Assembly: GCA_947632025.1 (NCBI GenBank)
Contig: CANRNN010000006.1
Span: forward strand, 72,030-136,029
From: an uncultured Clostridia bacterium
GTDB lineage: Bacteria; Bacillota; Clostridia; Oscillospirales; Ruminococcaceae
Reading direction: 5' to 3'
DNA: 64,000 nt
Both the position numbers and the translations under genes were made by a program. Shown here in pieces: positions 5,062 to 60,819 of the stretch. How positions within the stretch are numbered: position 1 is the first letter of the stretch; each line of letters starts with the position of its first letter. Below the pieces are notes generated by a model that saw only the letters and a list, made by a program, of their open reading frames with translations, was not told the origin of the DNA and searched no databases.

Positions 5062-5111
5062 GTTAGGCAAGAAGCGGGGCGTCGTTTGCCTTAGCCTCTT
5101 GCTTTCTGAAA

Positions 5112-5453
5112 GTGACTCCATCGGTAAGCCGAGTTCTGTCGTGTATGGTCATCTATCTAGCCCTGCCGTCGCCGGCAGGATCGAGCCACCTTTCAACGAG
5201 GCGCGCCGAGCAGACGCGTTACTCCCCGCACCAATCGGTGTTGCATCGGATAGGGTTTACACGGCAGCGCAGTCTCCCGCGCTCCGGTGAGCTTTTACCT
5301 CGCCATTCCACCCTTACAGTAAAAACTGCGGTATATTTTCTGTTGCACTAGCCCTGAGGTCGCCCTCGGCTGACGTTATCAGCTATCCTGCTCTGTGATG
5401 CTCGGACTTTCCTCATGACGCTCTCGCGCCCCGCGACCATATAATGAAGTCAC
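5112..5453 (-). ncRNA. rnpB: RNase P RNA (bacterial type A)
   Basis: Minus strand contains GAGGAAAGUCCGAGC near the 5' end and ACAGAACUCGGCUUAC near the 3' end; terminal GUGAC/GUCAC P1 helix; TTGATT-17-TATAAT promoter at 5488-5460. Confidence 0.96.
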
Positions 5454-16809: not shown

Positions 16810-17367
16810 TTATATACTGTAGGTTCTTAAAATGTCCTCCGCTATCTGACGCTGTGTGCGGCGCGTGTCCATAGCGAGCTTTTGCATATGCTTGTGAGCC
16901 TGCGCTTCTGTAAAGTTCAGATACTGGATAAGACAGCACTTTGCACGGCTTATCACTCTCGCGTCGTCCAACCGTCCTTGAAGCTCGGATTTTTCCTGCT
17001 CAAGGCGATTTATTTTTTCAGCCGCGACCGCCGCTAATCTCAGCGTTTGTGTCAGGGCGCTTTTCGTGAATGGTCTTGCGAGAACGAAAGCTCCCGTAAA
17101 TTTCACTCTCGACTGAACGTCGTCCGCGATATCCGCTCTCGCTAAAACTATCACGGGAGCGGTCGTCCGCCGTGAGATCTCAGCCACATAATTCAGCCCG
17201 AACTCACTCCGCAGCGGCGTCGAAACTATTACTGCCGACAGATCCTCAATATCGGAAAAACCGTTCTCATCAGAAGAAACCAGCACAAATTCCGTCTGTG
17301 TGTCATCAATGGCGGCTTTGATATTTTCAGCCGCTTCAAGCGTTCTGGCGTTTATCAATATCTTCAA
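16810..17367 (-). CDS. ANTAR-domain antitermination regulator with a degenerate receiver domain
   Basis: C-terminal ISRAKCCLIQYLNFTEAQAHKHMQKLAMDTRRT ANTAR helix bundle; receiver lacks the canonical phospho-Asp. Confidence 0.9.
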   Translation of the reverse strand: MKILINARTLEAAENIKAAIDDTQTEFVLVSSDENGFSDIEDLSAVIVSTPLRSEFGLNYVAEISRRTTAPVIVLARADIADDVQSRVKFTGAFVLARPFTKSALTQTLRLAAVAAEKINRLEQEKSELQGRLDDARVISRAKCCLIQYLNFTEAQAHKHMQKLAMDTRRTQRQIAEDILRTYSI

Positions 17368-17406
17368 TGCCGCACCTTCTTTTGTTCTTTTTTATGCCAA
17401 CAGGCT

Positions 17407-18126
17407 TTAGTTGTTGACGTAAAGCTGCTTATACGGTGATGCCGAGTTCGGAGTAAGCTTGAAGAACGTACCGCTTAACAGATCGTCGACATCGTTTCCG
17501 AAGTGCTTTACAAACCGCTCGACATAGTGACGAATGGACTGTTTTTCCTCGTCGGTGGCTTTTTCGCAGCAGACCTGCACAGGCAGTCCCACGGGTGCCG
17601 TTTCGCTTCTGATAAACATCTCGCCGCCGTGCATTCCCGTACCGCAGAAGCTTCCTACAGGGCAGCCCTCAACTCCGATACCTAGGACGATTATTATGCC
17701 GCCCGCCTGATATTCTCCGAGAAAATCGCCCACCTTGCCGCCGATAACGATTATCGGATACAGATCCTGATAGCTTTTCATATGGATACCGACTCTGTAG
17801 CCCGCGTTTCCCTGAACGTAAATTTCGCCCGAACGCATAGCGTATCCCGTCGTATCGCCGCAGTTTCCGTGAACGATGATAGCGCCGTCGTTCATGGTAT
17901 CCCCGATAGCGTCCTGAGCGTTTCCGTGAACGATTATCTTCGAGCCGTTGAGGTACGCGCCCAGCGCGTTTCCGGGAGTGCCCTCTATCATAATTTCTTT
18001 TCCCGAAAGCCCTGCGCCTATGTATCTCTGTCCGAGGACGTTCACAAGCTGGAATTTCTCGTCGGAGCTTGCTCTTATGACCCTGTTAAGCTCCGTGTAA
18101 CCGTGATTTCTCGCGTCAATTCTCAT
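17407..18126 (-). CDS. Glutamate synthase alpha-subunit C-terminal GXGXG-domain protein (GltB3)
   Basis: GQRYIGAG, GTPGNALGA, GDFLGEYQAGG, GTGMHGG repeats. Confidence 0.92.
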   Translation of the reverse strand: MRIDARNHGYTELNRVIRASSDEKFQLVNVLGQRYIGAGLSGKEIMIEGTPGNALGAYLNGSKIIVHGNAQDAIGDTMNDGAIIVHGNCGDTTGYAMRSGEIYVQGNAGYRVGIHMKSYQDLYPIIVIGGKVGDFLGEYQAGGIIIVLGIGVEGCPVGSFCGTGMHGGEMFIRSETAPVGLPVQVCCEKATDEEKQSIRHYVERFVKHFGNDVDDLLSGTFFKLTPNSASPYKQLYVNN

Positions 18127-19352
18127 CTTACAATACCTCCCAGCTTTTCCTCACGCCGAGCCTTGCCGAACATCATCATCTGCGGTTTTTGCTTCAGCAG
18201 ATCGACGTCGACCTCGTTTAAGTCTATCTTTTCCTTTATCATTGAGGTATATATCCCCGCCCTTGCCACATTTCCGAGCAGGATATATCCCACCAGCCTG
18301 TTGTCACGGAAAACGAGCTTTTTATACGTCGATTCGGTTTCCTCAACGAATTCCTCACCGTCGTAGCTTCCCGCGCTTATAATATGTACGCCCCAAAAGC
18401 CTATGGCGTTCATCGGAATGGCGTTGAGATAATAGCTCTCGCGTCCTGCCATATTGCGCCCCGCGACTTCGCCCTGCATATAAGCATTCGGAAGCAGTGC
18501 GAGTATTTTTTCGGAATCGGAGGACTCGTCATGCGACACCGTGCAGTCGCCTGCCGAATATATGTCGTCGAGCGACGTTTTCTGCGTCTGGTCGGTAATT
18601 ATACCGCGCTCTACTTTTCCACCCGCGTCGGCGACAAGCTCGGTATTCGGACGCACTCCTACTGCCACGATAAGCATATCGAATTCCACTGTCGAGCCGT
18701 TTTTAAGCTTTGCGGAATGTTCGGTAAGCTCCTCAGCCGAAGTTCCCAAAATGAATTTAACGCCGTGAGCCTCAATATGCCTCTGCATTTTCTGAGCCGC
18801 TCTCGCGTCAAGAATAGACGGCAGCACCCTGTCAGCCATATCTATTACCGTAATATCAACGTTATGCTCCGAAAGTGCTTCCGCTGCTTTAAGTCCGATA
18901 AGACCCGCGCCGATTATCAGCACCTTCATTCCGTCTTTAAGTTCCGAACGTATAGCCTTCGCGGAATCGTAGCTCATAAATGTATGATAATGAACCTTGT
19001 CAAGACCGTTCATAGGCGGCACGAAAGGTTTCGAGCCTGTCGCCACCATCAGCTTGTCATACGGCACCGAAAGTCCGTCCTCAAGCACCACCGATTTATT
19101 TGCAGTGTCTATTTTCGTGACCTTTTTGCCAAGCACGGTCTTTACGCCGTTTTTCTCATAGTAATCGTCGGGACGGTAGTAAATGTTCTTGTCGGATACT
19201 CTTCCCTCAAGCCAATAGGAGATAAGCGGGCGGGAATATGTGTGATATTTTTCGTCGGAAATTATCGTGATCTCTCCCGCGCTGTCTATTTCCCGTATAC
19301 CCGAAACCGTACCTATTGCCGCAGCGGAATTGCCGATTATAACGTACCTCAT
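18123..19352 (-). CDS. FAD/NAD(P)H-dependent oxidoreductase (pyridine nucleotide-disulfide family)
   Basis: YVIIGNSAAA, YDKLMVATGS, IIGAGLIG, IYSAGD; start 19352 (MRYVIIG) preferred over 19409. Confidence 0.92.
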   Translation of the reverse strand: MRYVIIGNSAAAIGTVSGIREIDSAGEITIISDEKYHTYSRPLISYWLEGRVSDKNIYYRPDDYYEKNGVKTVLGKKVTKIDTANKSVVLEDGLSVPYDKLMVATGSKPFVPPMNGLDKVHYHTFMSYDSAKAIRSELKDGMKVLIIGAGLIGLKAAEALSEHNVDITVIDMADRVLPSILDARAAQKMQRHIEAHGVKFILGTSAEELTEHSAKLKNGSTVEFDMLIVAVGVRPNTELVADAGGKVERGIITDQTQKTSLDDIYSAGDCTVSHDESSDSEKILALLPNAYMQGEVAGRNMAGRESYYLNAIPMNAIGFWGVHIISAGSYDGEEFVEETESTYKKLVFRDNRLVGYILLGNVARAGIYTSMIKEKIDLNEVDVDLLKQKPQMMMFGKARREEKLGGIVR

Positions 19353-19360
19353 ATTCCCTT

Positions 19361-19795
19361 TCACCTCTCCTCGAAAACTATTGCCTTGTTGGGGCAGCCC
19401 TGAACGCACGCGGGTTCGCCGTCGTGATTTTTAAGGCACAGATCGCACTTTTGAATTCTGTGATTTGCCTCGTCAAACACCACGCACCCGAACGGACACG
19501 ACAGCACGCAAGTCCCGCAGCCGACGCATTTGTTCTCGTCGCAGCATACCACTCCGTCAACAATCGACAGCGCACCCGCGATACACCCGCGCACGCAGGG
19601 CTTTCCGTCGCAGTGACGGCACTGCACCGCGAAATTCACCTTGTCGCCCTCTTCGACCTGAATACGGGAAACGGGCTTTTTTCCGTTCCTGAATGCCGCG
19701 ACCATATTTGCAGCGCCGCTGTTTGCTGCGGCACAGTAATATTCACACAGGTGGCACGCCAAGCACCAATCCTCATTTACATATACTTTTTTCAT
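19361..19795 (-). CDS. 4Fe-4S dicluster ferredoxin-like electron-transfer protein
   Basis: CLACHLCEYYC, CRHCDGKPCVRGC, CVGCGTCVLSCP, KCDLC...PACVQGCP. Confidence 0.93.
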   Translation of the reverse strand: MKKVYVNEDWCLACHLCEYYCAAANSGAANMVAAFRNGKKPVSRIQVEEGDKVNFAVQCRHCDGKPCVRGCIAGALSIVDGVVCCDENKCVGCGTCVLSCPFGCVVFDEANHRIQKCDLCLKNHDGEPACVQGCPNKAIVFEER

Positions 19796-19809
19796 CGCAA
19801 ACTCCCTCC

Positions 19810-21315
19810 TTATTCTCCGGCGTGCTGGATCCCCAGAATTTCAAGCTCTTTGGGATTCAAGCCCACGCCGCGCAGCATTAGTCTGTTGCCTCTGAGAGCT
19901 TCGATGGAGTTTATTCCCATACCGCCCATCATTTCTTTTATCTCGTGATTCCACGCGGTAACGAGATTTACAAGCCGCTTGCTTGCGACTTCCGGATTAA
20001 GACGCTTTACAAGGTCGGCTCTCTGCGTTGCAATACCCCAGTTGCACTTGCCGGTGTTGCAGGAACGGCACAGATGGCAGCCCATGGACAGCAGTGCTGC
20101 CGTCGCTATATAGCAGGCGTCCGCGCCGAGAGCCACAGCCTTTACCACGTCCGCTGCCGAGCGGATAGAACCTCCGACAACGATTGAAACATCATTTCTG
20201 ATGCCCTCGTCACGGAGTCTTGAATCCACGCTTGCAAGCGCGAGTTCTATCGGGATACCAACGTTATCGCGAATTCTCGTCGGAGCGGCTCCTGTGCCGC
20301 CTCTGAAACCGTCGATAGCGATAATATCCGCGCCCGAACGCGCCACGCCCGACGCTATTGCCGCAACGTTATGCACTGCCGCGATTTTTACGATAACGGG
20401 CTTTTCCCAGTTTGTAGCTTCTTTCAGCGAGAATACCAGCTGCCGCAGATCCTCGATAGAATAAATATCGTGATGCGGAGCGGGAGAGATAGCGTCCGTG
20501 CCTTTAGGAATCATACGGGTCTTGGAGATCTCGTCATTTATCTTCATTCCCGGCAGATGACCGCCGATACCGGGCTTTGCGCCCTGACCCATTTTTATTT
20601 CGATAGCCGCGCCCGCGTCAAGGTATCCCTTGAACACTCCGAAACGTCCCGAAGCTACTTGACAAATCGTATTTTTGCCGTATTTGTAGAAATCCTCGTG
20701 CAAGCCGCCCTCTCCGGTATTGTAGTATGTACCCAGCTCTGTTGCGGCGCGCGCAAGGCTTTCGTGAGCGTTTTTGGAAATTGAACCGAACGACATCGCC
20801 GAGAACATTATCGGCACGTCAAGCTCCAGATACGGCGTTTTTTCGTAATGCGCCTTGCCGTTCTCGTCGTAAGATATTGCCTGCGACTTTTTGCCGAGGA
20901 AAGTTTTCGTTTCCATAGGCTCGCGAAGCGGGTCGATAGGCGGATTCGTGACCTGCGAGGCATTGAGGAGTATCTTGTCCCAGTAAACGGGATATTCTTT
21001 CGGAGTTCCCATAGCGGAAAGCAGAACGCCGCCGCTGTCCGCCTGTTTGTAAATTTCCGTCATTATCTGCTGATTCCAGTTTGCGTTGTCACGGAAACGA
21101 TTTTCGTTCGGGCGGATCTTCAAAGCGTTTACGGGGCATAAGCAAACGCACCTCTGGCAATCCACACAGGTCATTTCGTCGGAAACCATTCTGTCAAGCT
21201 CCGCGTCGTACTTGTGGACTTCGTTTGCGCACTGGCGCTCACACACACGGCATTTTATGCACTTGTCATGATCTCTCACGACCTCGAAAAGAGGATTCAT
21301 ATAATTGACAGGCAT
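19810..21315 (-). CDS. Glutamate synthase FMN-binding subunit with N-terminal 4Fe-4S domain (GltB2)
   Basis: CIKCRVCERQC, CVDCQRCVCLCP, AMSFGSIS, NTGEGG, EIKMGQGAKPGIGGHLPG, CHLCRSCNTGKCNWGIATQ. Confidence 0.95.
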   Translation of the reverse strand: MPVNYMNPLFEVVRDHDKCIKCRVCERQCANEVHKYDAELDRMVSDEMTCVDCQRCVCLCPVNALKIRPNENRFRDNANWNQQIMTEIYKQADSGGVLLSAMGTPKEYPVYWDKILLNASQVTNPPIDPLREPMETKTFLGKKSQAISYDENGKAHYEKTPYLELDVPIMFSAMSFGSISKNAHESLARAATELGTYYNTGEGGLHEDFYKYGKNTICQVASGRFGVFKGYLDAGAAIEIKMGQGAKPGIGGHLPGMKINDEISKTRMIPKGTDAISPAPHHDIYSIEDLRQLVFSLKEATNWEKPVIVKIAAVHNVAAIASGVARSGADIIAIDGFRGGTGAAPTRIRDNVGIPIELALASVDSRLRDEGIRNDVSIVVGGSIRSAADVVKAVALGADACYIATAALLSMGCHLCRSCNTGKCNWGIATQRADLVKRLNPEVASKRLVNLVTAWNHEIKEMMGGMGINSIEALRGNRLMLRGVGLNPKELEILGIQHAGE

Positions 21316-22428
21316 TTACTTGTTCCCCCTTTCAGCGCCTTTGTCAAGCGTTACAATAATAGGCTCTCCTCCGCGTGGGCTCCATATTTTATCCACGTCG
21401 GGGCACATTGTTCTTATGGAACATTCCTCCGAAGAGATATAGACCGTATCGCCCTTTTCGGCAGCTACCATAGAACGCAGTTTCAGACGGTCGTTCAGCG
21501 CCATAAGTCCGTTGTTGAATCCGAGGATTATCGAAAAAGGACCTGTTATGAGCAGGCTTGAATAAACGTTTCTGAAATGGCGGTATTTTTCGGTATCTTC
21601 TGGAGAGAATTTTCCGCTTTCAAGCTCGCTCCAGAACGGAGAAGCTATCACCTTTGCCACATCTTCGAGCGGCATATCCAGCCGCCTGTGGAGATAATCT
21701 ATAATATAGGTGATGACCTCCGTATCGGTAAGCAGATTGCACTTATATCCGAACATCTCGATAAAGCGTCTGTTCGCGTCATAAGACGATATCTCGCCGT
21801 TATGTACTATTGTGTAATCCAGCAGTGAGAACGGGTGAGCGCCGCCCCACCAGCCGGGCGTATTCGTCGGGTAACGTCCGTGGACAGTCCATGCCCAGCC
21901 GTCGTATTCCTCCAGACGGTAGAAATCGCCCACGTCCTCAGGGTAGCCGACCGCCTTGAAAACGCCCATGTTCTTGCCGCTTGAAAAAACATATGCGCCA
22001 TCTATTTTATCGTTTATTTTGATAACGCATTTTGCAACATAGGTGCGCTCGTCAAGCTGACTGTCCTGAAGTTTCGTAGGCAGAGGATTCACGAAATAAC
22101 GCCAGATAAGCGGCTCGTCAGTGATATTTGGATTTTTCCTGACGGGGATCCTTGACAAATTAACCACATCGAAATGTCTGTCAAGAAACGCCTCCGCTTT
22201 TACTCTTGCTTCTCCCGAATCGTAGAATACATGCAGCGCATACTGATCCTTATACTCCGGATAAATTCCGTATCCCGCATAGCCGCCGCCCAAGCCGTTT
22301 GAACGCTCGTGCATACACGCTATGGAATTTACGATCACGCTTCCGTTGGTACGCTTTCCGCTTCGGTTTATGAAGCCCGAAATCGCGCAGCCCGCAGGTA
22401 TCCTCGTTTCTCCCTCTCTTTGTAACAT
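21316..22428 (-). CDS. Glutamate synthase class-II glutamine amidotransferase subunit (GltB1)
   Basis: GCAISG N-terminal Cys, HERSNGLGGG, HGRYPTNTPGWWGGAHPF, VHNGEISSY, NDRLKLR; AGGAG RBS before ATG 22428. Confidence 0.93.
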   Translation of the reverse strand: MLQREGETRIPAGCAISGFINRSGKRTNGSVIVNSIACMHERSNGLGGGYAGYGIYPEYKDQYALHVFYDSGEARVKAEAFLDRHFDVVNLSRIPVRKNPNITDEPLIWRYFVNPLPTKLQDSQLDERTYVAKCVIKINDKIDGAYVFSSGKNMGVFKAVGYPEDVGDFYRLEEYDGWAWTVHGRYPTNTPGWWGGAHPFSLLDYTIVHNGEISSYDANRRFIEMFGYKCNLLTDTEVITYIIDYLHRRLDMPLEDVAKVIASPFWSELESGKFSPEDTEKYRHFRNVYSSLLITGPFSIILGFNNGLMALNDRLKLRSMVAAEKGDTVYISSEECSIRTMCPDVDKIWSPRGGEPIIVTLDKGAERGNK

Positions 22429-22604
22429 AAACTCACTCCTTATTATATAGCGGAAGCCTTTTTCGGTTTCCGCCCGTTTTCGGGAACGCAGTATTTTGTT
22501 TTCCCGAATTTCACAAATGTAAAAAAATGTAACTGTGAAATTTTTGCCGCCGAGGGTAATTTCAGGCAGAATAATCCCTAAATCACCTATGTCCGACAAT
22601 TCAT

Positions 22605-22633
22605 ATTATATCACCCTTTACGGAATTTGTCAA
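22605..22633 (-). promoter_or_regulatory. SigA promoter of the glt operon, giving a ~170-nt leader
   Basis: Minus strand TTGACA(22633-22628)-17-TATAAT(22610-22605). Confidence 0.8.
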
Positions 22634-22940
22634 GCGTTTTTGCAAGAATTTTTTTGGAAACTTTCATTTTTGAAGAATCGTATATCCGAATCGTCCATAA
22701 ATTCAACCGTAAAATCACCCCCGAAAACCAACTTCTGCACTCAAAACCGAATTTTCGTAATTTTTGCAAGAATTAAACATTTTGAAATGCAAAAATTTTG
22801 TGAAAATTCACAAAATAGAATTCGGAAATAATTTTGAATATCTACTTGAAAAATATTATGAAATGGGATATAATATTAAATGTATAGCTTTTTTATGAAT
22901 TTTTTACGGCAAAAATAATTCAAAAGAAAGGAAAATTGCT

Positions 22941-34469: not shown

Positions 34470-34712
34470 ATATGCTAAAGACGTTGACGCGGCAGGAGTA
34501 ACCGGAAAATTCCCCGCAGAGAGCCGTGGGTGCTGGAATCACGGCGGGATATTCCGGCGAAGTGCAGCCGCATAGTCGGCTTGAGGAAAGGTCTGCTCTG
34601 AGTATTCAAGCCCGTTTTCCGCGTTAAGGATCTTGAGGGGCAATTATGCCCGAAGCGAAGTGGAACCGCGTTCTTAACGCCTTCGTGCCGTGCGCACGGA
34701 GGTTTTTGTTTT
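34470..34712 (+). promoter_or_regulatory. T-box riboswitch, Cys specifier
   Basis: TTGCAA-17-TATAAT promoter (34435-34463), AGAGAG and GGTGCTGGAA stem-I motifs, specifier GAAG-UGC (34563-34565), T-box AAGTGGAACCGCG (34658-34670), terminator CCTTCGTGC/GCACGGAGG-TTTTT, upstream of cysE-cysS. Confidence 0.92.
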
Positions 34713-47910: not shown

Positions 47911-47985
47911 CCGACTGTATACAATTATACCACATTTTCCCCAAAAAAGCAAGCTCAAACGATTTTCGCATATCAATATTTAGAG
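47911..47985. repeat. Upstream promoter-bearing arm shared with 60744-60819
   Basis: CCGACTGTATACAATTATACCACA(T/C)TTTCCCC(A/G)AAAAAGCAAGC: 42/44 identical; contains minus-strand TTGCTT-17-TATAAT. Confidence 0.9.
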
Positions 47986-48205: not shown

Positions 48206-49084
48206 TTGTCAAAGAACATAAGGGGAGAATTTGCCCCTCTACTATATGGAGATTTACTCTTCGTTTTGTACACCCCTTTAGGAGATATTCCCGATGAATA
48301 TTTCGGACGGCTATATAACCTGAAATGGCTTCAGCTTGTGAGCGCGGGCGCGGACAGGATAATTTACGGGAACGCAATTTCCGATAAAACCGTTCTGACA
48401 AACGCTTCCGGTGCATTCGGAGAGGTTATTTCGAAATATGTCATCGGCGGCATTCTTTGCCTATTCCGCGATTTTTTCAGCTATCGTGAAAATCAAATCG
48501 AAAAGCACTGGCATGATACAAAAAACGAACGTATGATCTGCGGCTCGACAGCGTTGATTTTGGGCTGCGGGAATATCGGCAAATGCGTTCCAACTCGTCT
48601 GAGGGCATTCGGAGCAAAAACCGTAGGAGTTCGTCAAAGCCGTAAAAATGCCCTGAATTTGACGAAACATATCCCGTTGAGAAACTTGATATGCTGCTTC
48701 CGGACGCCGACATAATTGTCTGCACCCTGCCGCGGACGCCTTCAACGGAACATTTCTTAAACCGCGAGCGGCTTATGCTGATTAAAAATGACGCGGTTAT
48801 CGTGAACGTCGAGCGCGGAAATGTTATTGACACAAACGCGCTTTGTGAAAGGCTGAAAAGAGGAGAATTGTTCGGCGCGGTGCTTGACGTTTTCGAGAAC
48901 GAACCGCTTGAACATAATTCACCGCTGTGGGATATGAAAAACGTTTTTTGTCACTCTGCATATTTCGGGGAAATCGTTCGGTCATTCTGAAAGAACCGAA
49001 AATCTGATAGCACAGATCTGTGAAGAAAATCTAAGGCGGTTTGTAAACGGAAAACCGCTTGTAAATATAGTTAAACAGAAATAA
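48206..49084 (+). pseudogene. D-2-hydroxyacid dehydrogenase, frameshifted
   Basis: LQLVSAGAD, ILGCGNIG, DIIVCTLP.TPSTEHFL, VNVERG, AVLDVFENEPL, then TLHISG..NLRRFVNGKPLVNIV* across at least three frames. Confidence 0.85.
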
Positions 49085-49132
49085 ATTTGAAATTTGTTTT
49101 TAAGGAGCCCATTTCAGAGGAGGTAAACTACA

Positions 49133-49315
49133 ATGTCAGGAAAACCGTTATCACACGAAGTCACAAAGGAAAACGGCTTCAAAAAGCCCGACCGTGTTGA
49201 CAGACATCCGCGTTCAAACAATAATGAAACTTCGGGATCGGATAACAGATCCTCTAATTATCTGCCTGACCCGAACGATGGATTGCACAAGCCGAAAATC
49301 GTACCATGGAAGTAA
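49133..49315 (+). CDS. Small hydrophilic 60-aa protein, hypothetical
   Basis: Strong GAGGAGGT RBS; MSGKPLSHEVTKENGFKKPDRVDRHPRSNNNETSGSDNRSSNYLPDPNDGLHKPKIVPWK. Confidence 0.65.
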   Translation: MSGKPLSHEVTKENGFKKPDRVDRHPRSNNNETSGSDNRSSNYLPDPNDGLHKPKIVPWK

Positions 49316-49543
49316 ATGATGACAATATATCCGGCGGGCAAAAACACCGTGAAATAATAATTCATCTTGTTTTTTGTTTTGTGAAGAAAGTCAACTCCCG
49401 CTTCCGCAGATATTTTCGTTGAAATGCCCATAAATGCAACTTTCAATTTGAAATAATTCAAAAAAACCACAATAAATTAAGAAATTTTGTGCATAATGCC
49501 CTAAAATTTGCAATTTTATTTTGAAAATCTGTTAAAATAGTGC

Positions 49544-49629
49544 TTGACATAATATTCTCTTTGTGATATAATAAAGGTGTAAAGCAAGGGCGCTTTGGCG
49601 GATCTCCGTCAAGGCGCCCTTTATTTTTT
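49544..49629 (+). promoter_or_regulatory. SigA promoter plus ANTAR-type hairpin overlapping an intrinsic terminator (attenuator)
   Basis: TTGACA(49544-49549)-17-TATAAT(49567-49572); AAAGC-[AAGGGC]-GCTTT hairpin (49581-49596); 16-bp terminator stem 49586-49621 followed by TATTTTTT. Confidence 0.75.
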
Positions 49630-49647
49630 GAAAAGAGATGAATTTTT

Positions 49648-50967
49648 ATGAACACGCCTGTTGCAAACTCAAAGGAAATAAACGAGCTTCTGGCACGCTA
49701 TGGCGTAAAATTCGGGATTTACAAAAACGGAAATTTCCACGAACAGCTTTTCCCGTTTGACGCGATACCCCGCGTTATTTCAGCATCGGATTTCTCTGAG
49801 CTTGAAAAGGGGCTTATTCAGCGCGTCGATGCGCTGAATATGTTTTTGAGGGACGTTTATTCCGACAAGAAGATAATTGCCGACGGGGTCGTTCCCGAAG
49901 ATTTTGTTTACAGCTCAACGGGTTTTTTGCAGCAATGCGACGGGGTGCTGCCGCCAAAGGGCATATACAGTCACATTTCGGGTATTGATTTAGTTCAGGC
50001 AAAGGACGGCGTCTGGTATATTCTTGAGGATAACCTTCGCATACCGTCCGGCGCGTCCTATCCGCTTATAGCGCGCGAGCTTTGCCGAATGACAAGTCCC
50101 GATGTTTTCCGTGAGGCTAAGGTGCGCGACAACAGAAATTATATTGCACTGCTCCGCGAAACGATGAATTATGTAAACTGCGGCGGGATAAACGTTATAT
50201 TGACACCCGGAAGATATAACGCCGCATATTTTGAACATTCCTATTTCGCGGAGAAAACGGGAGCTGCGCTGGTTCAGAATTCCGATTTGTTTGTGGAGGA
50301 CAATATTCTCTATCTTAAGGATTATCAGAACGGAAAAACGCGCGTGGGAGCGGTCTACCGCAGGATCTCGGACGAATATCTCGACCCGCTTACGTTCCTG
50401 CCGGAGTCGCTTATCGGAATTCCGCATATTATGGACGCGTACCGCGCGGGAAATGTCGCGCTGATAAACGCTCCCGGAAACGGCGCTGCCGACGACAAGG
50501 GAATTTACTATTTCGTGCCGAAGATGATAGAGTACTATCTCGGCGAAAAGGCAATTCTGAAAAATGCGCCGACATATCTGCCGTTCTATGAAAACGACAG
50601 GAAGTATGTCCTCGATAACCTTGAAAAGCTGGTTATAAAGGACGTTTCGGAGGCGGGCGGCTACGGCGTTGTGTTCGGCTCGGATATGACCAAAGAGCAG
50701 CTTGCCGACTGGCGAAAGCTGATAACAGAGCAGTCCCGCCGGTTTATCGCGCAGGAGGTGATAGATTTCATTGACCTGCCGATAACGGACGAGCAGGGAA
50801 ATACCACGCTGCACAAAGCGGATCTCAGAGCCTTTGTGCTTTCCGGGGAAACCACAAGGGTATGGTGCAGCGGACTTACAAGATTTTCACGGAATGTTGA
50901 CTCATTTGTAGTCAATTCATCGCAAGGAGGAGGCTTTAAGGATACATGGGTACTATCACAAGAATAA
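49648..50967 (+). CDS. Circularly permuted type-2 ATP-grasp protein
   Basis: QRVDALNMFL.DVY, ISGIDLV, LEDNLRIPSGASY, YRRISDEYLDP, NAPGNGAADDK, GGYG, FIAQE, DLRAF, VVNSSQGGGFKDTWV. Confidence 0.95.
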   Translation: MNTPVANSKEINELLARYGVKFGIYKNGNFHEQLFPFDAIPRVISASDFSELEKGLIQRVDALNMFLRDVYSDKKIIADGVVPEDFVYSSTGFLQQCDGVLPPKGIYSHISGIDLVQAKDGVWYILEDNLRIPSGASYPLIARELCRMTSPDVFREAKVRDNRNYIALLRETMNYVNCGGINVILTPGRYNAAYFEHSYFAEKTGAALVQNSDLFVEDNILYLKDYQNGKTRVGAVYRRISDEYLDPLTFLPESLIGIPHIMDAYRAGNVALINAPGNGAADDKGIYYFVPKMIEYYLGEKAILKNAPTYLPFYENDRKYVLDNLEKLVIKDVSEAGGYGVVFGSDMTKEQLADWRKLITEQSRRFIAQEVIDFIDLPITDEQGNTTLHKADLRAFVLSGETTRVWCSGLTRFSRNVDSFVVNSSQGGGFKDTWVLSQE

Positions 50968-51659
50968 ACATAAACAATCTTTTCTGGCTTGGGAGATATA
51001 CGGAGCGTGTGTTTATAACGCTTAATTCGTTTTTCAGGTTCTCGGACAAAATTATCGAGCAGGGCGGGGAGTTTTACGGGAAATATCTCGAAAACATAAG
51101 CGTGCCGAATATTTACAAAAATTCCGACGACTTTTTCGACCGTTATGTGTTTGACGAAAATGACCCGAATTCTATTTATTCAAATCTTTTACGCGCTTTA
51201 GGAAACGGCATTGTACTTCGCGAGGAAATTAAAACTCCGTCGCTGTCGTATCTGCAAATGGCTGCGGACAGGTTCAAGTCCTGCCGCGGTACGGACAAGA
51301 TACGCTACGACCTGCTGCCCGTCCGCGACGCAATTTACGCGTTCTGGGGGAGCGTCGACAGCAATATGACCGATTTTGACGCGCTGAAAATAATTCACCT
51401 CGGCAAGTCCGTGGAGCATGTTGATATGTCGCTTCGGCTCTCTTTGCCGGAGGAGGAAACCTTTGTCGGGCTTCAGAACCTTGTAAAGCACGTTGAGCGT
51501 TATATCGGGCAAAGCGGCTGTATCATAAACAAAGTGGCTCTTTCGGCTTTGAAAGCCGCACTTGCTGTTCCCGAAAAGCTTGACGAAAACAGAAGCGCGC
51601 TTATCACGAATGTTGAAGAGCTTATAGAGGTGAATTTCCTTGAAACGGTTGCGGTTTGA
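50946..51659 (+). CDS. Alpha-E domain protein (DUF403-like)
   Basis: NLFWLGRYTER, PNSIYSNL..A..N....RE, LGKSVEHVDM.LRL; overlaps the ATP-grasp stop. Confidence 0.9.
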   Translation: MGTITRININNLFWLGRYTERVFITLNSFFRFSDKIIEQGGEFYGKYLENISVPNIYKNSDDFFDRYVFDENDPNSIYSNLLRALGNGIVLREEIKTPSLSYLQMAADRFKSCRGTDKIRYDLLPVRDAIYAFWGSVDSNMTDFDALKIIHLGKSVEHVDMSLRLSLPEEETFVGLQNLVKHVERYIGQSGCIINKVALSALKAALAVPEKLDENRSALITNVEELIEVNFLETVAV

Positions 51660-52419
51660 ATATTCCGCGCGGCTGGAATTTGCGGAAAGCGTGTCGGAGC
51701 ATTGTTTCACGCTGCGCTGTCTGCCCGTATCCGACGGCAGACAGCTTATCCGCGAGCCGCAGTATGAAATTTTTCCGCTTGAAAACAGCAAAATATGGCT
51801 TAGTCGCGACAGTTTCGGGAACACTTTGCTTTGCGGAAGAATTCCCGATCCGCACAACATTTTTTCGTTTCACGTTTCGGGGAAAGCCGAGATAATAAAC
51901 ACGCGGGATATTTCCGGGTTTCCCGCGGCGATTTACGGGTACAGCTCTCCGCTTGCAAAGCCGGGGGATTTTATCCGAAAATTTTACAGCGAAAACACCC
52001 CGACGGCAGAATTGCCGATTGACCGCGCAATGGAGCTTTGCAACGCGCTTTATAACTCGATGAAATACGAAAAGGGAGTTACAAACGTGCATACCGCGGC
52101 TGAGGACGCTTTGAAACTCGGCGCGGGCGTTTGTCAGGACTATGCGCATATTTTTTTAGCGCTTTGCAGGCTGGACGGAATCCGGTGCAGATACGTTTCG
52201 GGTCTGGCATTTGAAAGCGGGGAAACTCACGCCTGGACGGAAGTCGGCAGCGGCTCTCGGTGGTACGGCGTTGACCCCGCAAACAACAGATTTATCGGCG
52301 AAAATTATATAAAACTCTGCCACGGCAGAGATTATTCCGATTGCCCGATAGAATGCGGGATCTATCTCGGAAATTCTTCGGGCGTTCAGACGGTAACGTC
52401 GTCTGTTGCCGAATTTTAA
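51640..52419 (+). CDS. Transglutaminase-like protein with Bact_transglu_N domain
   Basis: GVCQDYAHIF (Cys), HAW (His), GVDPAN (Asp) triad; GRDYSDC. Confidence 0.93.
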   Translation: MKRLRFEYSARLEFAESVSEHCFTLRCLPVSDGRQLIREPQYEIFPLENSKIWLSRDSFGNTLLCGRIPDPHNIFSFHVSGKAEIINTRDISGFPAAIYGYSSPLAKPGDFIRKFYSENTPTAELPIDRAMELCNALYNSMKYEKGVTNVHTAAEDALKLGAGVCQDYAHIFLALCRLDGIRCRYVSGLAFESGETHAWTEVGSGSRWYGVDPANNRFIGENYIKLCHGRDYSDCPIECGIYLGNSSGVQTVTSSVAEF

Positions 52420-52431
52420 GGGAGTGGAATT

Positions 52432-53376
52432 ATGATAGAAGCGGTCACACGGGCGGGACTTGCGGTAAACGAAAATATAGTTATAAAGAAAAACCGTATA
52501 GTCGGCTCTGACAATAAAAATCCTTCCGGAAAAAGAGTTTGTATCGTCACGGGAACGCACGGCGACGAGCTTGAAGGGCAATATGTCTGCGCGAAACTGT
52601 CAAACGTTCTGCAAAATAATTTGACGCTGTTAAACGGGACGGTTGATATTTATCCCGCGCTTAATCCCTTGGGGGTTGATTCAATTACGCGCGGAATACC
52701 TCTGTTTGACCTCGATATGAACCGCATTTTCCCCGGAAGCGCGGACGGCACTATGGCGGAGTGCCTTGCCGCAGACATAATCGCCGATATAAGCGGCGCG
52801 GATATCTGTATAGATATTCATTCGAGCAACATTTATTTGAGAGAAATTCCGCAGGTGCGGATAAACGAAATTACCGCCGACGAGCTTATTCCTTATGCAA
52901 AAATGCTGGGGTGTGATTTTATCTGGGTTCACGCGTCGGCAACGGTCCTTGAATCCACGCTTGCATACAGCTTGAACAGCATCGGCACGAAAACGCTTGT
53001 CGTGGAAATGGGCGTCGGAATGAGGATCACCTGCGAATACGGCGACAGACTGACGGAGGGGATCTTAAATCTTCTCAAAAATCTCGGAATGTGGAAAGGC
53101 GACTGCAAGCCCGTAAAAGAGCCGATTGTGTCCGCGGACAGAGCGGTGGAATTTGTAAATTCGGGAGCGGCGGGGATATTTATTCCGACTGCAAAGCACT
53201 GGTCGAACGTTAAATGCGGCGATGCCGTGGGGAGCGTTATTGACCCCGTCACGGGCAACGTCGAGGAATATGTGACTTCTCCCTGCGACGGGATAATTTT
53301 CACGCTTCGTGAGTTTCCGATAGTGTACGGCGGGTCGCTTATTGCGAGAATTTTAGGGGGTGACGAAAATGCGTAA
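52432..53376 (+). CDS. M14 succinylglutamate desuccinylase/aspartoacylase-family peptidase (catalytic residues intact)
   Basis: GTHGDE, NPLG, DMNRIFPG, DIHSS, VEMG; C-terminal barrel-sandwich region. Confidence 0.9.
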   Translation: MIEAVTRAGLAVNENIVIKKNRIVGSDNKNPSGKRVCIVTGTHGDELEGQYVCAKLSNVLQNNLTLLNGTVDIYPALNPLGVDSITRGIPLFDLDMNRIFPGSADGTMAECLAADIIADISGADICIDIHSSNIYLREIPQVRINEITADELIPYAKMLGCDFIWVHASATVLESTLAYSLNSIGTKTLVVEMGVGMRITCEYGDRLTEGILNLLKNLGMWKGDCKPVKEPIVSADRAVEFVNSGAAGIFIPTAKHWSNVKCGDAVGSVIDPVTGNVEEYVTSPCDGIIFTLREFPIVYGGSLIARILGGDENA

Positions 53377-54295
53377 AAAGACGTTGTATTCCCTGAAATC
53401 CCCCTACCGTGAGAGTATGGATATAATCGGTTTTCAGTTTGGTCACGGCGAGAAATCAATGTGCGTTATCGGCGCTATGCGCGGCAATGAAGTCCAGCAG
53501 ATGTATGTCTGCTCACAGCTTGTAAACCGCCTAAAATGCCTTGAAAGCGAGGGGCTGATTGCCGAAAACCGCGAGATTATGATAATCCCGTCCGCTAACT
53601 ATTATTCCATGAATATCGGAAAACGTTTCTGGACAATGGACAACACGGATATAAACCGAATGTTTCCCGGTTACGACCTTGGGGAAACCACACAGCGAAT
53701 TGCCGCGGGAATTTTCGAGAGCATTAAAGGCTATAAATACGGCGTTCAGCTTGCGAGTTTTTATCAGCAGGGCGATTTTCTGCCGCACGTCAAACTTATG
53801 GAAACAGGCTTTACCGACCACGAGCTTATGAAATGTTTCGGGCTGCCGTTTGCGTTTATCCGAAAGCCTCGTCCTTATGATACTACAACCTTGAATTATA
53901 ACTGGCAGATTTGGGAAACACAGGCGTTTTCGCTTTACACAAACGCCACCGATAACATTGACGAACCGTCCGCAAAACTTGCGGTAGACGCGATCTTAAG
54001 GTTTATGGCGGCGAACGGCGTTATAAAAACAAAAGTCCCCGGAGGATACATTACCGAAATGTTGGACGAAAAATCTCTCGTGCAGATACATTCGCCTGCC
54101 GCGGGGATTTATAAGAGTTTTGTCCGCACCGGCGACGAATTCAGAAAGGGCGACGTTTTGTGCGAGATAACCGACCCCTTGGACGGGAGCGTTATCCGTA
54201 AAATTTCCGCGCCTTCGGACGGAATTGTTTTCTTTCGATATAATCGTCCGCTGGAGTTTGAAAAAACCGTACTGTATAAAATTATACCTATTTAA
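53369..54295 (+). CDS. M14 desuccinylase/aspartoacylase-family paralog, probably inactive
   Basis: GAMRGNE, DINRMFPG, GVQLAS and FSLYT where the paralog has H..E, DIH and VEMG. Confidence 0.85.
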   Translation: MRKKTLYSLKSPYRESMDIIGFQFGHGEKSMCVIGAMRGNEVQQMYVCSQLVNRLKCLESEGLIAENREIMIIPSANYYSMNIGKRFWTMDNTDINRMFPGYDLGETTQRIAAGIFESIKGYKYGVQLASFYQQGDFLPHVKLMETGFTDHELMKCFGLPFAFIRKPRPYDTTTLNYNWQIWETQAFSLYTNATDNIDEPSAKLAVDAILRFMAANGVIKTKVPGGYITEMLDEKSLVQIHSPAAGIYKSFVRTGDEFRKGDVLCEITDPLDGSVIRKISAPSDGIVFFRYNRPLEFEKTVLYKIIPI

Positions 54296-54485
54296 TTAAG
54301 TAAAAACAGCAAACAGGCTGTAATTTGACTTTATGTACAAGCTGGGTATTATCATTGCAGACGGACGTGGCAATTGTCGCGGCTCTGGGATTTGATAATA
54401 TATAAATAAAAGTTATGAACAGCACGGCAAAACGCAACGTTAAAATGCCTTTGCAAAGGAATTTCTTCTAAGTCGAACGAAAACA

Positions 54486-54515
54486 AAACGTCCCGCAGGA
54501 GCCTGCGGGACGTTT
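54486..54515. terminator. Strong inverted repeat, likely bidirectional terminator
   Basis: AAACGTCCCGCAGG-ag-CCTGCGGGACGTTT. Confidence 0.75.
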
Positions 54516-54960
54516 CAATGCAAGGCATTGTCCTGCCGTGTAACTTTTACAAAAAATATTTGTTGATGTTTTGTATCTCGTAATAATAAAATAACACATT
54601 TTCAAGATTTGTCAATACCATAAAATTAAAATATGATAGCTATAAAATATCGGGTGTAATACATTCAAAAATAAACATTTTTACAACTAATCTCAATATG
54701 ATGAAATTTGTAGGCATTTCAAATCGGAATTTTGGGGTTCATATTTCATTCTTTTTGATTATTATCCGAATTTTTAGTTGTTTTAATTTTAGTGTCCATT
54801 TTGAAATAAAGAATACCTTGCCTGCAGAATCGCCTGTAAAAGGAATTATAGCAAAACGCCTGTCGCTTTCAGAGTTGAGTGGGGACAGATTGCGACAGGT
54901 GTTCACAACGAATCAGCAGTTGTCAAAACCATATGTTTCAAATTATAATAATTAATTCAC

Positions 54961-57900
54961 TCAATTAAAGTTTAATTCTCTGCGAAGTTGTTGTATAGTT
55001 TTAAATGTAATTTCTTTATTATTGCTCAAGTAACTTTTTCTTTTGGAATCTGCCCAATATGAATCAGGAATTTTAATCAATAATTCCTTAATATCATGTA
55101 TTCCAGGAACAGCAACGATTTCAAAATCCTCAGTATATAGAATGCTCCACCCACTTATAGCGCCATTATAGTAATCAGGGTAAATATCCTTTAGCGATTC
55201 TACATATTCTTGCTGTTCTGTTGTTAAATTTGATGTGATAAAAGCATAAATCAGATACGACCTATCATATGACAATCTTCTATTAAATGGAACAAAATTA
55301 TAATATTTTCCGTTCAATAAATCCCTTATACGATATTCGTTTGGATGATAACGAGAGTACATGATATTTCCAAATATACTTAGCGAGTCAACTTCATATA
55401 AAAATCTAATATCGTTGTCGTTAATTTTCCCTTTGATAATATTACCTTTGACAAAGGACTTATTGTTTTCAGCAAGCAGGTTGAAAAAATCGGTATTTAC
55501 CATCGGTAGTAGTGAATTCACAACATTGTAGTGATGATAATCAGTTTGTGAAAATCTGCCTTTCTGTAAACCATACTAGTATAGTCGTCAAATCTGTTTC
55601 TAATTATTTGTTCTTCAATTTTGAACTTTGGTGAATATAGAACAACCTCATTTTGACGCAATACAATTTCTTCCGATGACGCTATTTTATTAGCAACAAT
55701 AACCTTAAAGAACGGCGTTGACATTAAGTAATTTATATTTGTTTTGATGATGATATTTTCCACTGTAAGAAAATCCGACAATGAAATATTGCTGCAAATA
55801 TTATCGGATAAATCGCTCCAGAAAATATTTTGCGGTTTGCGTCCCAGATAGTATGCAATGTAATCCCAAAGAAATCTCCTCGACGTAAAATAGTAGGTCC
55901 ACATTATGTCGGATATATGGGATTTGTATTCATTCGGAACAGTTTCTAAATATTCGCAAATACAGTGTATTTCATTATCAACGACCTTAAAAAATAACAT
56001 CTCTGTTTCATCTACAAGCTGCGTTGGAACGCTTATTATATTTCTGTGGTCGATACTCAATTTCGGACGCACTTCTCCTATAAAATTCAACGTAAAATCT
56101 GTGTCGTAGTTGGTGGGTAATTTCATATTTCGGCTTAACTGCACAGTTATGCCGTCAATTAAAAAACCCGATTTATGAAACTCTAAAATCCGATAAAAAA
56201 GCAAACTTTCGGCGTTTATCGGCTTGGAATAATCTTTAGGAAAGTATAAAATGTTGCGGTATTGCAGGTTTTGGGTGTCTACAAAAATTTCTTTTCTTAC
56301 AACATTGTCTTCAGATAGGGAATTAATGATGCTGCTGAAATCATGATATTGGTATGAATATTTTTCTGCAACTTTTTTGCATGTCATATCTATCAATTTG
56401 ATTGTATTCAGATTTATAAAAAAGTAAGAGCCGCTTTTATACGAAGCCTTATATTTGGAACATTCTCCGGTACATCTTGAAAATATATTGATGCTTGGAG
56501 GACAAAGCTTAATGTATCTTGTCAGTATCGTGAGAAAATACTTTTTCTCTTGTTGATTAATTTTATAATTTCTTTCAGAGCCTTCTTCGTATAAAGAATA
56601 CATATCTAAAAACAATTCCCATTCCTTACAGTGGGTACTTCGTTCGGATGTTGACTGATACATAAGTATATCGTTTAATGTTTTCTTATTTGGTATTTCA
56701 TCAGAAATATTATCATCTTTTAAGAATAATTTGACAATTGTACCCGAATTTTTAAGGCGTTCAGCGTCGTCAAAAAGAGGGGTTGAAAAATATAAGTATT
56801 CTTTTTTCCCGTCTAAAGTTAGGCAAATGACATCGGAATTATTTTTTTTGGTTGTTATCTCTATTAAATCGCATAACATAAAGCACGACAAAATGCCTAT
56901 TCCGAATTGTGAAATAGGGTAAAATTTTTTGGAAGATTCCGCGCGCATTTGATAAAAATCGGCAGAAGAATAGAAGGTATGTCCTATATGTAAAAGGTAG
57001 TTCGTTATTATTGACTTATCCATTCCAATACCGTTATCATAACAATATAAATATTTTCGTTCTTTACCATGTTTAGTGCATACATCAATTCCAAATTCAA
57101 TATTCCCAATAAAGTCAGGCAAATTTAATTGTTTACACCAGCATGCGTCAAGAGAATTTTGATATAATTCTCGAATACAAGCATATTTGTCTTTATATAA
57201 TTCTTCGCTCATCAGCAAATCAATAATGTTGGATTGATCCATTTTTATACATAAATCATCAGCCGGAATAAACTCTTTAGAACAAGACGTAACCCCTTTA
57301 GCATTGATTTTGTTGTTTATATTAAGTCCAAGCTGGTTGAGCCTATTGCATTTTTGCAGATTTAATAATTCGCCTTCAACATATTTAATATAGTCTTTTA
57401 AGAAGTAATACTCTTCCGGATTTTCACAAGGAGAATATGCATTTATTACAACATTACCCCCATTGTTGTTTATTACAAAATTAAACCCTGTAAGTTTAGA
57501 ACTCAGTGAATATTGTTATTTGTCCCTTTTTCATAGCTTAATGAATAAGATACTCTGTCCGACCCGAAATGAAGTGCGTCTGCAACTCTTAACATTGCAG
57601 CGACAAACAATAAATCAGCTTTTTCGTTTTCAAAATATTTTCCTGAAAGCTTCTGAATTTCATTTTGTGCTTCATCAAAATTTATGCCGTGAGAAAAGCA
57701 TAATTCCCCAAAAATTTGAGAAAACAATTTGCTGTAATTATGCAATTTTTCCCTGTCAAATTTTTTCTAAATTTATGCAGTAAATTCTGCTTAATTTGGC
57801 ATGATTTGCTCTTATATATTCTTTGCGAATTTGCGTGTTGATTTTATCAGCATTTGTATCAGACAATTTGTTTTTTAACTGCGGAAGCCTGCCGCTACGA

Positions 57901-60743: not shown

Positions 60744-60819
60744 CCGACTGTATACAATTATACCACACTTTCCCCGAAAAAGCAAGCCCGAAAGAAACTT
60801 CAACTATCAATATTTCGAG
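60744..60819. repeat. Upstream promoter-bearing arm (homologous to 47911-47985)
   Basis: 42/44 identity over the first 44 nt, plus a shared TATCAATATTT.GAG tail. Confidence 0.9.

Follow-up and report, generated by a model that had tools for sequence, protein, structure and literature searches.

The set formed by a circularly permuted ATP-grasp (cpATP-grasp) ligase, an Alpha-E protein, and a transglutaminase-like protein (COG2308-COG2307-COG1305, here called the triad) is among the most widespread bacterial enzyme sets without a known product. The triad was predicted to be a peptide-tagging system (Iyer et al. 2009, as cited in PMC5666114 and PMC6376114). Structural studies of Anbu, the proteasome-family protein of the Anbu operon, revealed no substrate. 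Two reports connect such genes with nitrogen: Anbu is up in nitrogen-limited Pseudomonas putida, as cited in PMC5666114, and a Burkholderia cenocepacia transglutaminase-like gene cluster, in which a cpATP-grasp gene is unconfirmed, depends on NtrC and sigma-54 (PMC5491218). Here we describe a five-gene cassette (g1 to g5) in a stretch of 64,000 nucleotides (nt), hereafter the window, from an uncultured Clostridia bacterium of the Ruminococcaceae (GenBank assembly GCA_947632025.1, contig CANRNN010000006.1, positions 72,030 to 136,029 of the forward strand). In the cassette the triad is followed by two genes of the AstE/AspA family and preceded by a leader RNA that also stands before genes of ammonium assimilation. 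The cassette is a real, conserved, nitrogen-regulated variant of a known, uncharacterized system.

A scan with g5 only, over one genome per GTDB species, returned at least 326 loci, the best 80 of which (57 to 96% identity to g5) were analyzed. The order g1-g2-g3-g4-g5 was found in all 80 wherever the contig reached far enough, in hosts from the Oscillospiraceae, from Ruminococcus (including R. flavefaciens FD-1 and Ruminococcus sp. YE71), and from the Lachnospiraceae, including Sporofaciens; this arrangement is far beyond chance. A first-pass annotation, made from the letters of the window, had proposed a five-gene unit of overlapping or nearly abutting genes and had staked it beforehand on the conservation of its two M14 genes (g4 and g5) with the ligase core. 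The unit was recovered, with reading frames at exactly the coordinates it listed (Table 1), overlaps of 22 nt (g1/g2), 20 nt (g2/g3), and 17 nt (g4/g5), and a gap of 12 nt between g3 and g4, and the M14 genes do stay with the core, as the constant gene order attests. The start/stop overlaps are also kept across loci, mostly as ATGA, at g1/g2 in 85%, at g2/g3 in 78%, and at g4/g5 in 95% of them. Amino acid identity across loci is 70 to 98% for g1 (mostly 70 to 85%) and 57 to 96% for g4 and g5, and drops to 30 to 45% for g3, as for g2, beyond the nearest relatives. Purifying selection acts on each of the five genes, with ratios of nonsynonymous to synonymous substitution rates (dN/dS) of 0.03 to 0.09 (g1), 0.08 to 0.19 (g2), 0.09 to 0.16 (g3), 0.05 to 0.08 (g4), and 0.03 to 0.10 (g5).

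The same linkage was seen when 401 genomes, sampled evenly over the phylum, were searched: 3 had g5 and 6 a cpATP-grasp gene. In exactly those 3 with g5, the cpATP-grasp gene is a 70%-identical g1, and it is adjacent to g5. Two of the other cpATP-grasp genomes (G028 and G253) were examined and carry plain triads, with either a full-length, 336-amino-acid (aa) Alpha-E protein or an Alpha-E-transglutaminase fusion; neither an Anbu gene nor an AstE/AspA gene was found in these two triads. The third (G306) is congeneric with G028, and its g1 is 44% identical. No match to the Anbu/proteasome family (PF00227) was obtained in the whole of the window's own genome, which is 100% complete, nor in the cassette loci. 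In light of these triads and of a genome that lacks any proteasome-family gene, the earlier idea that the M14 pair fills the slot of Anbu is too simple.

The flanks of the cassette are mostly unconserved across loci. Just three neighbors recur, a FUSC_2-HAD fusion (18 loci), a Peptidase_C26 gene (11), and a RelA_SpoT-like gene (9); the Peptidase_C26 and FUSC-HAD genes each have a leader copy of their own in one genome. Horizontal transfer of the operon had been suspected from its G+C content of about 49%, which exceeds that of the flanks (31 to 38%), and was ruled out by the genome value of 47.3%, the operon (48.6%) standing at the 58th percentile of the genome. The G+C content of the operon equals the genome average, and the operon is therefore native here; the flanks, rather than the operon, look acquired. 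The cassette is thus a native, self-contained, conserved five-gene operon of gut and rumen Clostridia.

All three tested components of the triad are present, namely the cpATP-grasp protein, Alpha-E with its ER motif, and a Bact_transglu_N protein with Cys-His-Asp, and the first-pass statement that the ligase and transglutaminase motifs are intact was borne out. The g1 product matched CP_ATPgrasp_2 (PF14403, E = 4.9e-136) over profile positions 1 to 373 of 374 and is therefore full length; its solved relative is PDB 3n6x (E = 2.7e-116), and 208 of its 439 columns are invariant among 58 sequences. The g2 product matched Alpha-E (PF04168, E = 2.9e-14) over just profile positions 7 to 164 of 294, is about 100 aa shorter than the 336-aa Alpha-E of plain triads in the phylum, and keeps its ER motif (R17/E20/R21) in 46 to 47 of 47 orthologues. 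It evolves fast (35 to 60% identity), yet its dN/dS stays within the range given above. The AlphaFold2 (AF2) model of g2 is all-alpha, with a predicted local distance difference test score (pLDDT) of 85.9, and the best fold relative found for this model in the PDB was uninformative (E = 0.68, template modeling [TM] score 0.25). The g3 product matched Bact_transglu_N plus Transglut_core in Pfam (E = 3.5e-20), has a solved relative in PDB 3isr (E = 2.9e-15), and carries the catalytic residues C165, H197, and D212 in 71 of 71 orthologues.

The last two genes both matched AstE_AspA_cat (PF24827), with E values of 2e-23 for g4 and 1.9e-9 for g5, and they differ in what they retain of that family. 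The nearest PDB relatives of g4 are 3cdx, 2qj8, and DoeB (6twl/6twm), and in the alignment its residues H43, E46, H130, and E192 coincide with the 3cdx and 2qj8 ligands. The zinc-binding and catalytic set is kept across orthologues (H43, H130, and E192 in 76/78; E46 in 78/78), and an N97-R98 pair is invariant. The corresponding zinc triad and general base of CphZ are H50/E53/H179/E251 (PMC9974463). Judged by these residues, g4 is a complete Zn deacylase. Assignment to a named enzyme is another matter, since g4 scored 58 bits on the NCBIfam DoeB model TIGR02994 against a cutoff of 402.7 (g5, 29 bits), and the AstE (TIGR03242) and aspartoacylase (NF002601) models gave 17 to 22 bits against cutoffs of 170 to 306. 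In g5, an arginine (R41) replaces the first zinc histidine in 79/79 orthologues and an alanine (A132) the second in 77/80, and the catalytic position is not occupied by Glu; E44 is retained, as is the N-R pair. The g5 protein fails the defining metal site of the AstE/AspA family though the fold is retained, and it is not a canonical metallopeptidase. The first-pass description of two M14 peptidases accordingly stands for g4, with its zinc site and catalytic Glu, and falls for g5, which lacks both zinc histidines and the Glu. Nonetheless, g5 is not decaying: 84 of its 311 columns are invariant among 80 sequences. Its AF2 model (pLDDT 83.8) superposes on DoeB, CphZ, and Mlr6093 with TM scores of 0.70 to 0.76 (E of about 1e-18 to 1e-19), the likeness to DoeB and CphZ being given by scores of 0.74 to 0.76.

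Two further observations concern g5. Residues 86 to 105 (window positions 53615 to 53674), GKRFWTMDNTDINRMFPGYD, are the most invariant stretch of the protein and the sole region in which the AF2 pLDDT falls below 50; on this model, the loop may become ordered only on a partner or ligand. Members of the g5 subfamily also occur as orphans. One is in the window's own genome (C4:72603-73523, minus strand; 50% identical), near ybaK-like and radical-SAM genes, and another (L076:8004-8936) lies between secDF and recJ, in both cases with no g4 or ligase gene nearby. These orphans keep the private motifs RG[ND]E, KRFW, DNTDINRMFPG, GETTxRIA, SFY, and TLNYN. A dead partner of g4 is the likeliest reading of g5, but not a safe one, because the subfamily also exists as such orphan genes.

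The leader upstream of g1 consists of a promoter, a small hairpin (P2), and an intrinsic terminator (Table 1). The 5' arm of the terminator contains the P2 loop and the 3' side of the P2 stem, so that the two structures are mutually exclusive. About 58 of 62 orthologous loci show this promoter-hairpin-terminator design ahead of the cassette, with an equivalent promoter at the corresponding place in most of them; it also precedes the distant cassettes of genomes G040 and G196 and is absent before plain triads. The hexaloop follows the consensus A-A-N-G-G/A-C/U with a C-G closing pair, A1 being present in 50/54 and G4 in 54/54 sequences. The inner three pairs of P2 are 100% paired in 49 distinct sequences and show exchanges between AU and GC; the sequences had been preselected for a stem of at least 3 bp, and it is therefore the covariation, not the pairing, that is evidence for P2. 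Covariation extends to the 5' side of the P2 stem, which takes no part in the terminator. Across 46 leaders the terminator stem is 94% paired, with 93 double-change cells, a number as high as which was reached in 0 of 500 shuffles.

No Rfam family matched the leader at its gathering score; the best hit reached 21.7 bits where 45 were required. In classical ANTAR targets the hexaloop hairpins come in pairs, the ANTAR regulons are mostly made up of nitrogen genes, and the upstream hairpin, P1, is needed in vivo for EutV-type antitermination (PMC3369931). A EutV-RNA structure later redefined the minimal ANTAR target, reducing it to one hexaloop in which G4 is essential (PMC8934654). The leader shows the features expected of such targets, a hexaloop with A1 and G4 on a stem of at least 3 bp in a hairpin that overlaps an intrinsic terminator. 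None of the leaders of g1, glnN, amt, and PII showed a second hexaloop hairpin 5 to 12 nt upstream, and one would not fit because the -10 box lies about 8 to 20 nt upstream of the hairpin, ending 7 nt before P2 in the window. The dual-hairpin ANTAR motif was ruled out on this ground.

Other copies of the leader indicate the company that the cassette keeps. In the window's own genome, a strict motif-plus-terminator scan reduced 592 motif hits to 8 sites, 3 of which have promoter context: the leaders of g1, of the type III glutamine synthetase (GS-III) gene glnN, and of an Amt-PII fusion. A covariance model, built from g1 leaders only and giving rough E values, ranked the glnN leader second in this genome (38 bits, E = 1.4e-5) and added a fourth site, before a PII-like gene and an amino acid permease. 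At that site (C18:1656-3488, plus strand) the PII-like gene is followed by an APC-family permease, a pairing that suggests PII-gated amino acid uptake. A relaxed genome-wide hexaloop scan gave mostly noise, and the strict motif and the covariance model alone were informative. Six other cassette genomes were scanned with the covariance model, where Pfam confirmed a subset of the gene annotations and the remainder were named by eye. The sites found there (Table 1) carry the hexaloop motif, most of them behind promoter-like sequence. Counted by genome, hits fell at GS-III in 4 of the six, at Amt in 2, at PII in 1, and at GOGAT subunits in 2.

In R. flavefaciens FD-1 (G001), five inspected leader copies lie within 29 kb (contig C8:39568-68411; loci L083, L089, L095, L102, and L111), before the GNAT gene, citrate synthase, the cassette, Peptidase_C26, and DUF1989, with two weaker model hits at 55800 to 56071. 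This stretch looks like a clustered nitrogen-regulon island.

That the cassette shares its regulation with ammonium assimilation genes is well supported. The link with nitrogen and the ANTAR leader had both been put forward in the first-pass annotation. The nitrogen link holds, for the design is common to glnN, amt-glnB, and PII-permease genes here and to GS-III, glutamate synthase (GOGAT), Amt, and AsnA genes elsewhere. As for the ANTAR leader, one hexaloop hairpin is present, not the classical dual motif. Since GS-III, Amt-PII, PII-permease, and GOGAT genes stand behind this leader too, read-through most likely occurs under nitrogen limitation, and we infer induction under nitrogen limitation from the usual behavior of GS/GOGAT/Amt regulons.

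The REC-ANTAR protein encoded in the window is the likely regulator of the leader. Its gene is the last of a split glutamate synthase operon, and the nearest solved relatives of the protein are Rv1626, AmiR, and EutV. ANTAR genes were present in 7/7 cassette genomes and in 0/14 control genomes. The six other cassette genomes have one or two each, in open frames of 190 to 207 codons compared with 193 here, and in two of the six an ANTAR gene lies downstream of a GOGAT leader hit on the same strand. The glutamate synthase operon of the window has a leader of about 170 nt, with a GAA-AAAGGC-UUC hairpin just before the ribosome-binding site. This leader was not counted as a clear regulon member, having no overlapping terminator, and control of the operon may be translational.

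Table 1. Positions of the cassette, its leader, and other features in the window, followed by leader sites in six other cassette genomes
Feature	Position	Strand	Description
Promoter	49544-49572	+	sigma-70 type, TTGACA-17-TATAAT with TG-extended -10; sole 12/12 consensus match in 49400-54900
Antiterminator-type hairpin P2	49580-49597	+	6-bp stem UAAAGC/GCUUUG; hexaloop AAGGGC at 49586-49591 (A1, G4)
Intrinsic terminator	49586-49629	+	16-bp stem 49586-49621 plus U-run
g1	49648-50967	+	circularly permuted ATP-grasp amide ligase, 439 aa
g2	50946-51659	+	shortened Alpha-E protein, 237 aa, R17/E20/R21 motif
g3	51640-52419	+	transglutaminase-fold Cys-His-Asp protein, 259 aa, TTG start
g4	52432-53376	+	putative canonical Zn-dependent AstE/AspA-family (DoeB/CphZ-like) deacylase, 314 aa
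g5	53360-54295	+	noncanonical AstE/AspA paralogue without Zn ligands, 311 aa, GTG start
ANTAR gene	16810-17367	-	REC-like plus ANTAR; candidate trans-acting regulator; own genome's only ANTAR-domain gene
Glutamate synthase operon region	16810-22640	-	split, archaeal type (GATase_2, Glu_synthase, Pyr_redox_2, GXGXG); operon 22599-16810, ANTAR gene last
Glutamate synthase operon leader	22440-22630	-	
D-2-hydroxyacid dehydrogenase gene	48206-49085	+	split into at least 3 frames: 48206-48715, 48691-48990, tail to about 49085
60-aa open reading frame	49133-49315	+	strong GAGGAGG ribosome-binding site
52-nt direct repeat	47911-47962 and 60744-60795		90% identity, 12.8 kb apart
RNase P RNA	5109-5452	-	268 bits
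T-box leader	34475-34687	+	106 bits
R. flavefaciens FD-1 leader sites			cassette, GNAT gene, citrate synthase, Peptidase_C26, AsnA, DUF1989 protein
Ruminococcus sp. YE71 leader sites			cassette, FUSC-HAD gene, GS-III, GltB, aconitase-family gene, two regulators
Sporofaciens leader sites			cassette, PII, GS-III, class III aminotransferase
Oscillospiraceae U.5_2 leader sites			cassette, GS-III, GOGAT subunit
Lachnospiraceae Zagget2 leader sites			cassette, Amt, deaminase
Huintestinicola leader sites			cassette, Amt-PII

Our preferred reading, to which we assign a probability of roughly 0.6, is that the cassette is a make-and-break module for a small amide-linked amino acid conjugate, induced by nitrogen limitation and serving salvage or capture and not proteasome-like tagging. 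Transcription would start from the strong sigma-70 promoter and within about 10 nt reach the leader, where the A-A-N-G-G-C hairpin would compete with the terminator. A hexaloop-binding antiterminator, most likely the one REC-ANTAR protein, whose gene closes the glutamate synthase operon, would hold the small hairpin and let RNA polymerase read through. The g1 ligase, with its Alpha-E partner g2, would then join a carboxylate to an amine through an amide bond, with consumption of ATP; g3 would hydrolyze or transfer this amide through its Cys-His-Asp residues, and g4 would release an amino acid with a free alpha-carboxylate. The g5 protein, of the same fold without the metal site, would be a noncatalytic or differently catalytic partner, a g4-g5 heteromer being probable. 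In this scheme the genes, their residues and conservation, and the common leader are observed, and we infer which protein is the regulator, which way control runs, what the substrates are, and that g4 and g5 form a complex. A small conjugate is favored over protein tagging because the relatives of g4 and g5 are small-molecule enzymes, because no conserved carrier or target gene was found beside the cassette among the loci, and because a conserved Gln/Glu tail able to act as an acceptor is absent from the C termini of all five proteins. The nearest characterized relatives (DoeB, CphZ, AstE, and AspA) all act on small N-acyl amino acids or dipeptides, as CphZ does on beta-Asp-Arg (PMC9974463). 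The first-pass annotation had suggested glutamyl/aspartyl tagging or a nitrogen-storage peptide; making a storage compound fits poorly with coregulation with GS, GOGAT, and Amt.

Several points weigh against this module. ATP hydrolysis by a Yersinia homologue is the only biochemistry reported for the triad (PMC6376114). A ligase and hydrolases in one operon could equally serve reversible protein modification. Because the leader lacks P1, a different RNA-binding factor may act in place of an ANTAR protein. Some of the covariance model hits are ordinary terminators. Finally, g5-type proteins also stand alone in housekeeping contexts and need not be mere partners of g4.

Reversible modification, by analogy with the RimK/TTL ligases and M14 deglutamylases, is a serious rival, although we consider it unlikely on balance. 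By this account g1 and g2 would add amino acids such as Glu to a carboxylate of a protein or peptide, probably a protein of nitrogen metabolism, and g3 and g4/g5 would erase them. A translationally coupled operon that combines an ATP-grasp ligase with amide hydrolases of two kinds suits it, as do the published peptide-tagging prediction for the triad introduced above and membership in a nitrogen regulon, which would suit a regulatory modification. So does the N-R motif kept by g4; in M14-type enzymes this motif binds a free C-terminal carboxylate. Against it stand the absence of a target or carrier gene next to the cassette and the structural relatives of g4 and g5, which take small molecules in closed pockets (PMC9974463), and pull-downs in Yersinia yielded no complexes (PMC6376114). 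A built-in Gln/Glu acceptor tail on Alpha-E or the transglutaminase was considered as a candidate and ruled out, no such C terminus occurring among the five proteins. Less probable still, and in our view very unlikely, is a small peptide-like metabolite or protectant for which the nitrogen link is incidental, with g1 building the compound, g3 and g4 maturing or trimming it, and the leader acting as a promoter-proximal attenuator or 5' stabilizer. ATP-grasp ligases often make small peptides, the unconserved flanks mark the cassette as a modular unit, and the leader has a single hairpin instead of the dual ANTAR motif. However, the same leader and loop consensus recur before GS-III, Amt, PII, GOGAT, and AsnA in seven genomes of two families, which makes chance very unlikely. 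The 5' stem of the small hairpin covaries, as described, without a terminator role, and the triad is nitrogen regulated in Proteobacteria by a different mechanism, as far as the accounts in PMC5491218 and PMC5666114 go.

A separate question is whether g5 is itself an active enzyme or a ligand sensor, which would give the cassette two different activities on the AstE/AspA fold. We regard this as unlikely, though the least improbable of the alternatives. The protein is as constrained as the ligase, with its 84 invariant columns and a dN/dS of 0.03, and the orphan copies keep the motifs of the subfamily with neither g4 nor a ligase nearby. Nevertheless, every orthologue lacks the general-base Glu and two of the three Zn ligands, the overlap of g4 with g5, seen in 95% of loci, is a usual trait of genes whose products form one complex, CphZ and similar relatives are dimeric (PMC9974463), and the invariant loop has its low pLDDT as if it needed a partner or ligand.

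A bolder and unlikely reading makes the cassette a hitherto unrecognized, ATP-driven branch of nitrogen acquisition in gut Clostridia. On nitrogen starvation the ligase would capture ammonia, or an amine that the cell has scavenged, by amide linkage to a small carboxylate, g3 would transfer or release it, and a g4-g5 heteromer of enzyme and pseudo-enzyme would free the amino acid. If true, this would explain the whole Anbu-type triad, unexplained since 2008-2009, in many phyla, and it would add a class of single-hexaloop ANTAR attenuators that controls a complete nitrogen regulon.

The cassette offers three handles on the triad. The g4 protein, from a family acting on small N-acyl amino acids and dipeptides, narrows the search for a product; g5 is a strictly conserved metal-less paralogue and probably a partner subunit; and the leader common with GS-III, GOGAT, Amt/PII, and AsnA makes ammonium limitation predictable as the condition for the product. 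Cultured carriers exist in Ruminococcus flavefaciens FD-1, Ruminococcus sp. YE71, and a Sporofaciens sp. The leader itself is a probable single-hairpin ANTAR-type attenuator and would define a nitrogen regulon in dominant fiber-degrading bacteria of the gut and rumen. A literature search, which did not extend to Iyer et al. 2009, found no paper describing the cassette or linking AstE/AspA proteins with ATP-grasp ligases.

Other features of the window are recorded here in their own right. The two copies of the 52-nt direct repeat each adjoin a GNAT-type gene and bracket the operon together with its low-G+C flanks (31 to 38%). The broken D-2-hydroxyacid dehydrogenase gene directly upstream of the operon promoter region is probably a pseudogene. 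The 60-aa open reading frame encodes a polar product rich in Ser, Asn, and Asp; it has a counterpart of 67% identity at the same place in one other locus (L005), and among the 81 loci the only other tblastn match was the window's own (L001). No second copy of this frame was found in the window's own genome. The RNase P RNA and the T-box leader are both ordinary.

Among known systems, three invite comparison by analogy or by part. DoeB/EutE, the N-acetyl-L-2,4-diaminobutyrate deacetylase (6twl/6twm), and CphZ (8EIN/8EIP) share with g4 the fold, the H-E-H zinc triad, and the catalytic Glu, and with g5 the fold only, without the metal site; the cassette differs from them in sequence scores far below the family cutoffs and in lacking an ectoine or cyanophycin gene context. 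Amide ligation followed by hydrolysis is familiar from RimK/TTL-type ATP-grasp ligases with M14-type deglutamylases, from glutathionylspermidine synthetase/amidase, and from gamma-glutamylation by PuuA and PuuD. The cassette resembles these pairs in encoding an amide ligase together with amide-bond hydrolases, and a PuuD-like Peptidase_C26 gene with its own leader copy adjoins it in Ruminococcus. Its proteins have no detectable sequence membership in those families, however, and the likeness is one of analogy only. The leader resembles the ANTAR leaders of the EutV, NasR, and AmiR systems (PMC3369931, PMC8934654) in its short stem, its A1/G4 hexaloop, its overlap with the 5' arm of the terminator, its regulon of nitrogen genes, and the presence of a REC-ANTAR protein in the genome; it differs in being a single hairpin without P1 and in a tighter loop consensus with a conserved C-G closing pair.

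The closest comparison remains that with the Anbu operon and the triad (Iyer et al. 2009, Valas & Bourne 2008, as cited in PMC5666114 and PMC6376114). The first three genes of the cassette belong to the same families in the same order and share the translational coupling, the intact ER and Cys-His-Asp motifs, and the link to nitrogen limitation. Unlike the Anbu operon, the cassette lies in a genome without Anbu or any proteasome-family gene. Compared with the triad, its Alpha-E protein is cut to about 237 aa, two strictly conserved AstE/AspA-family genes are added, control passes through a hexaloop/terminator leader instead of NtrC and sigma-54, and the hosts are gut and rumen Clostridia. The cassette belongs to the cpATP-grasp/Alpha-E/transglutaminase system and is not an Anbu operon in the strict sense.

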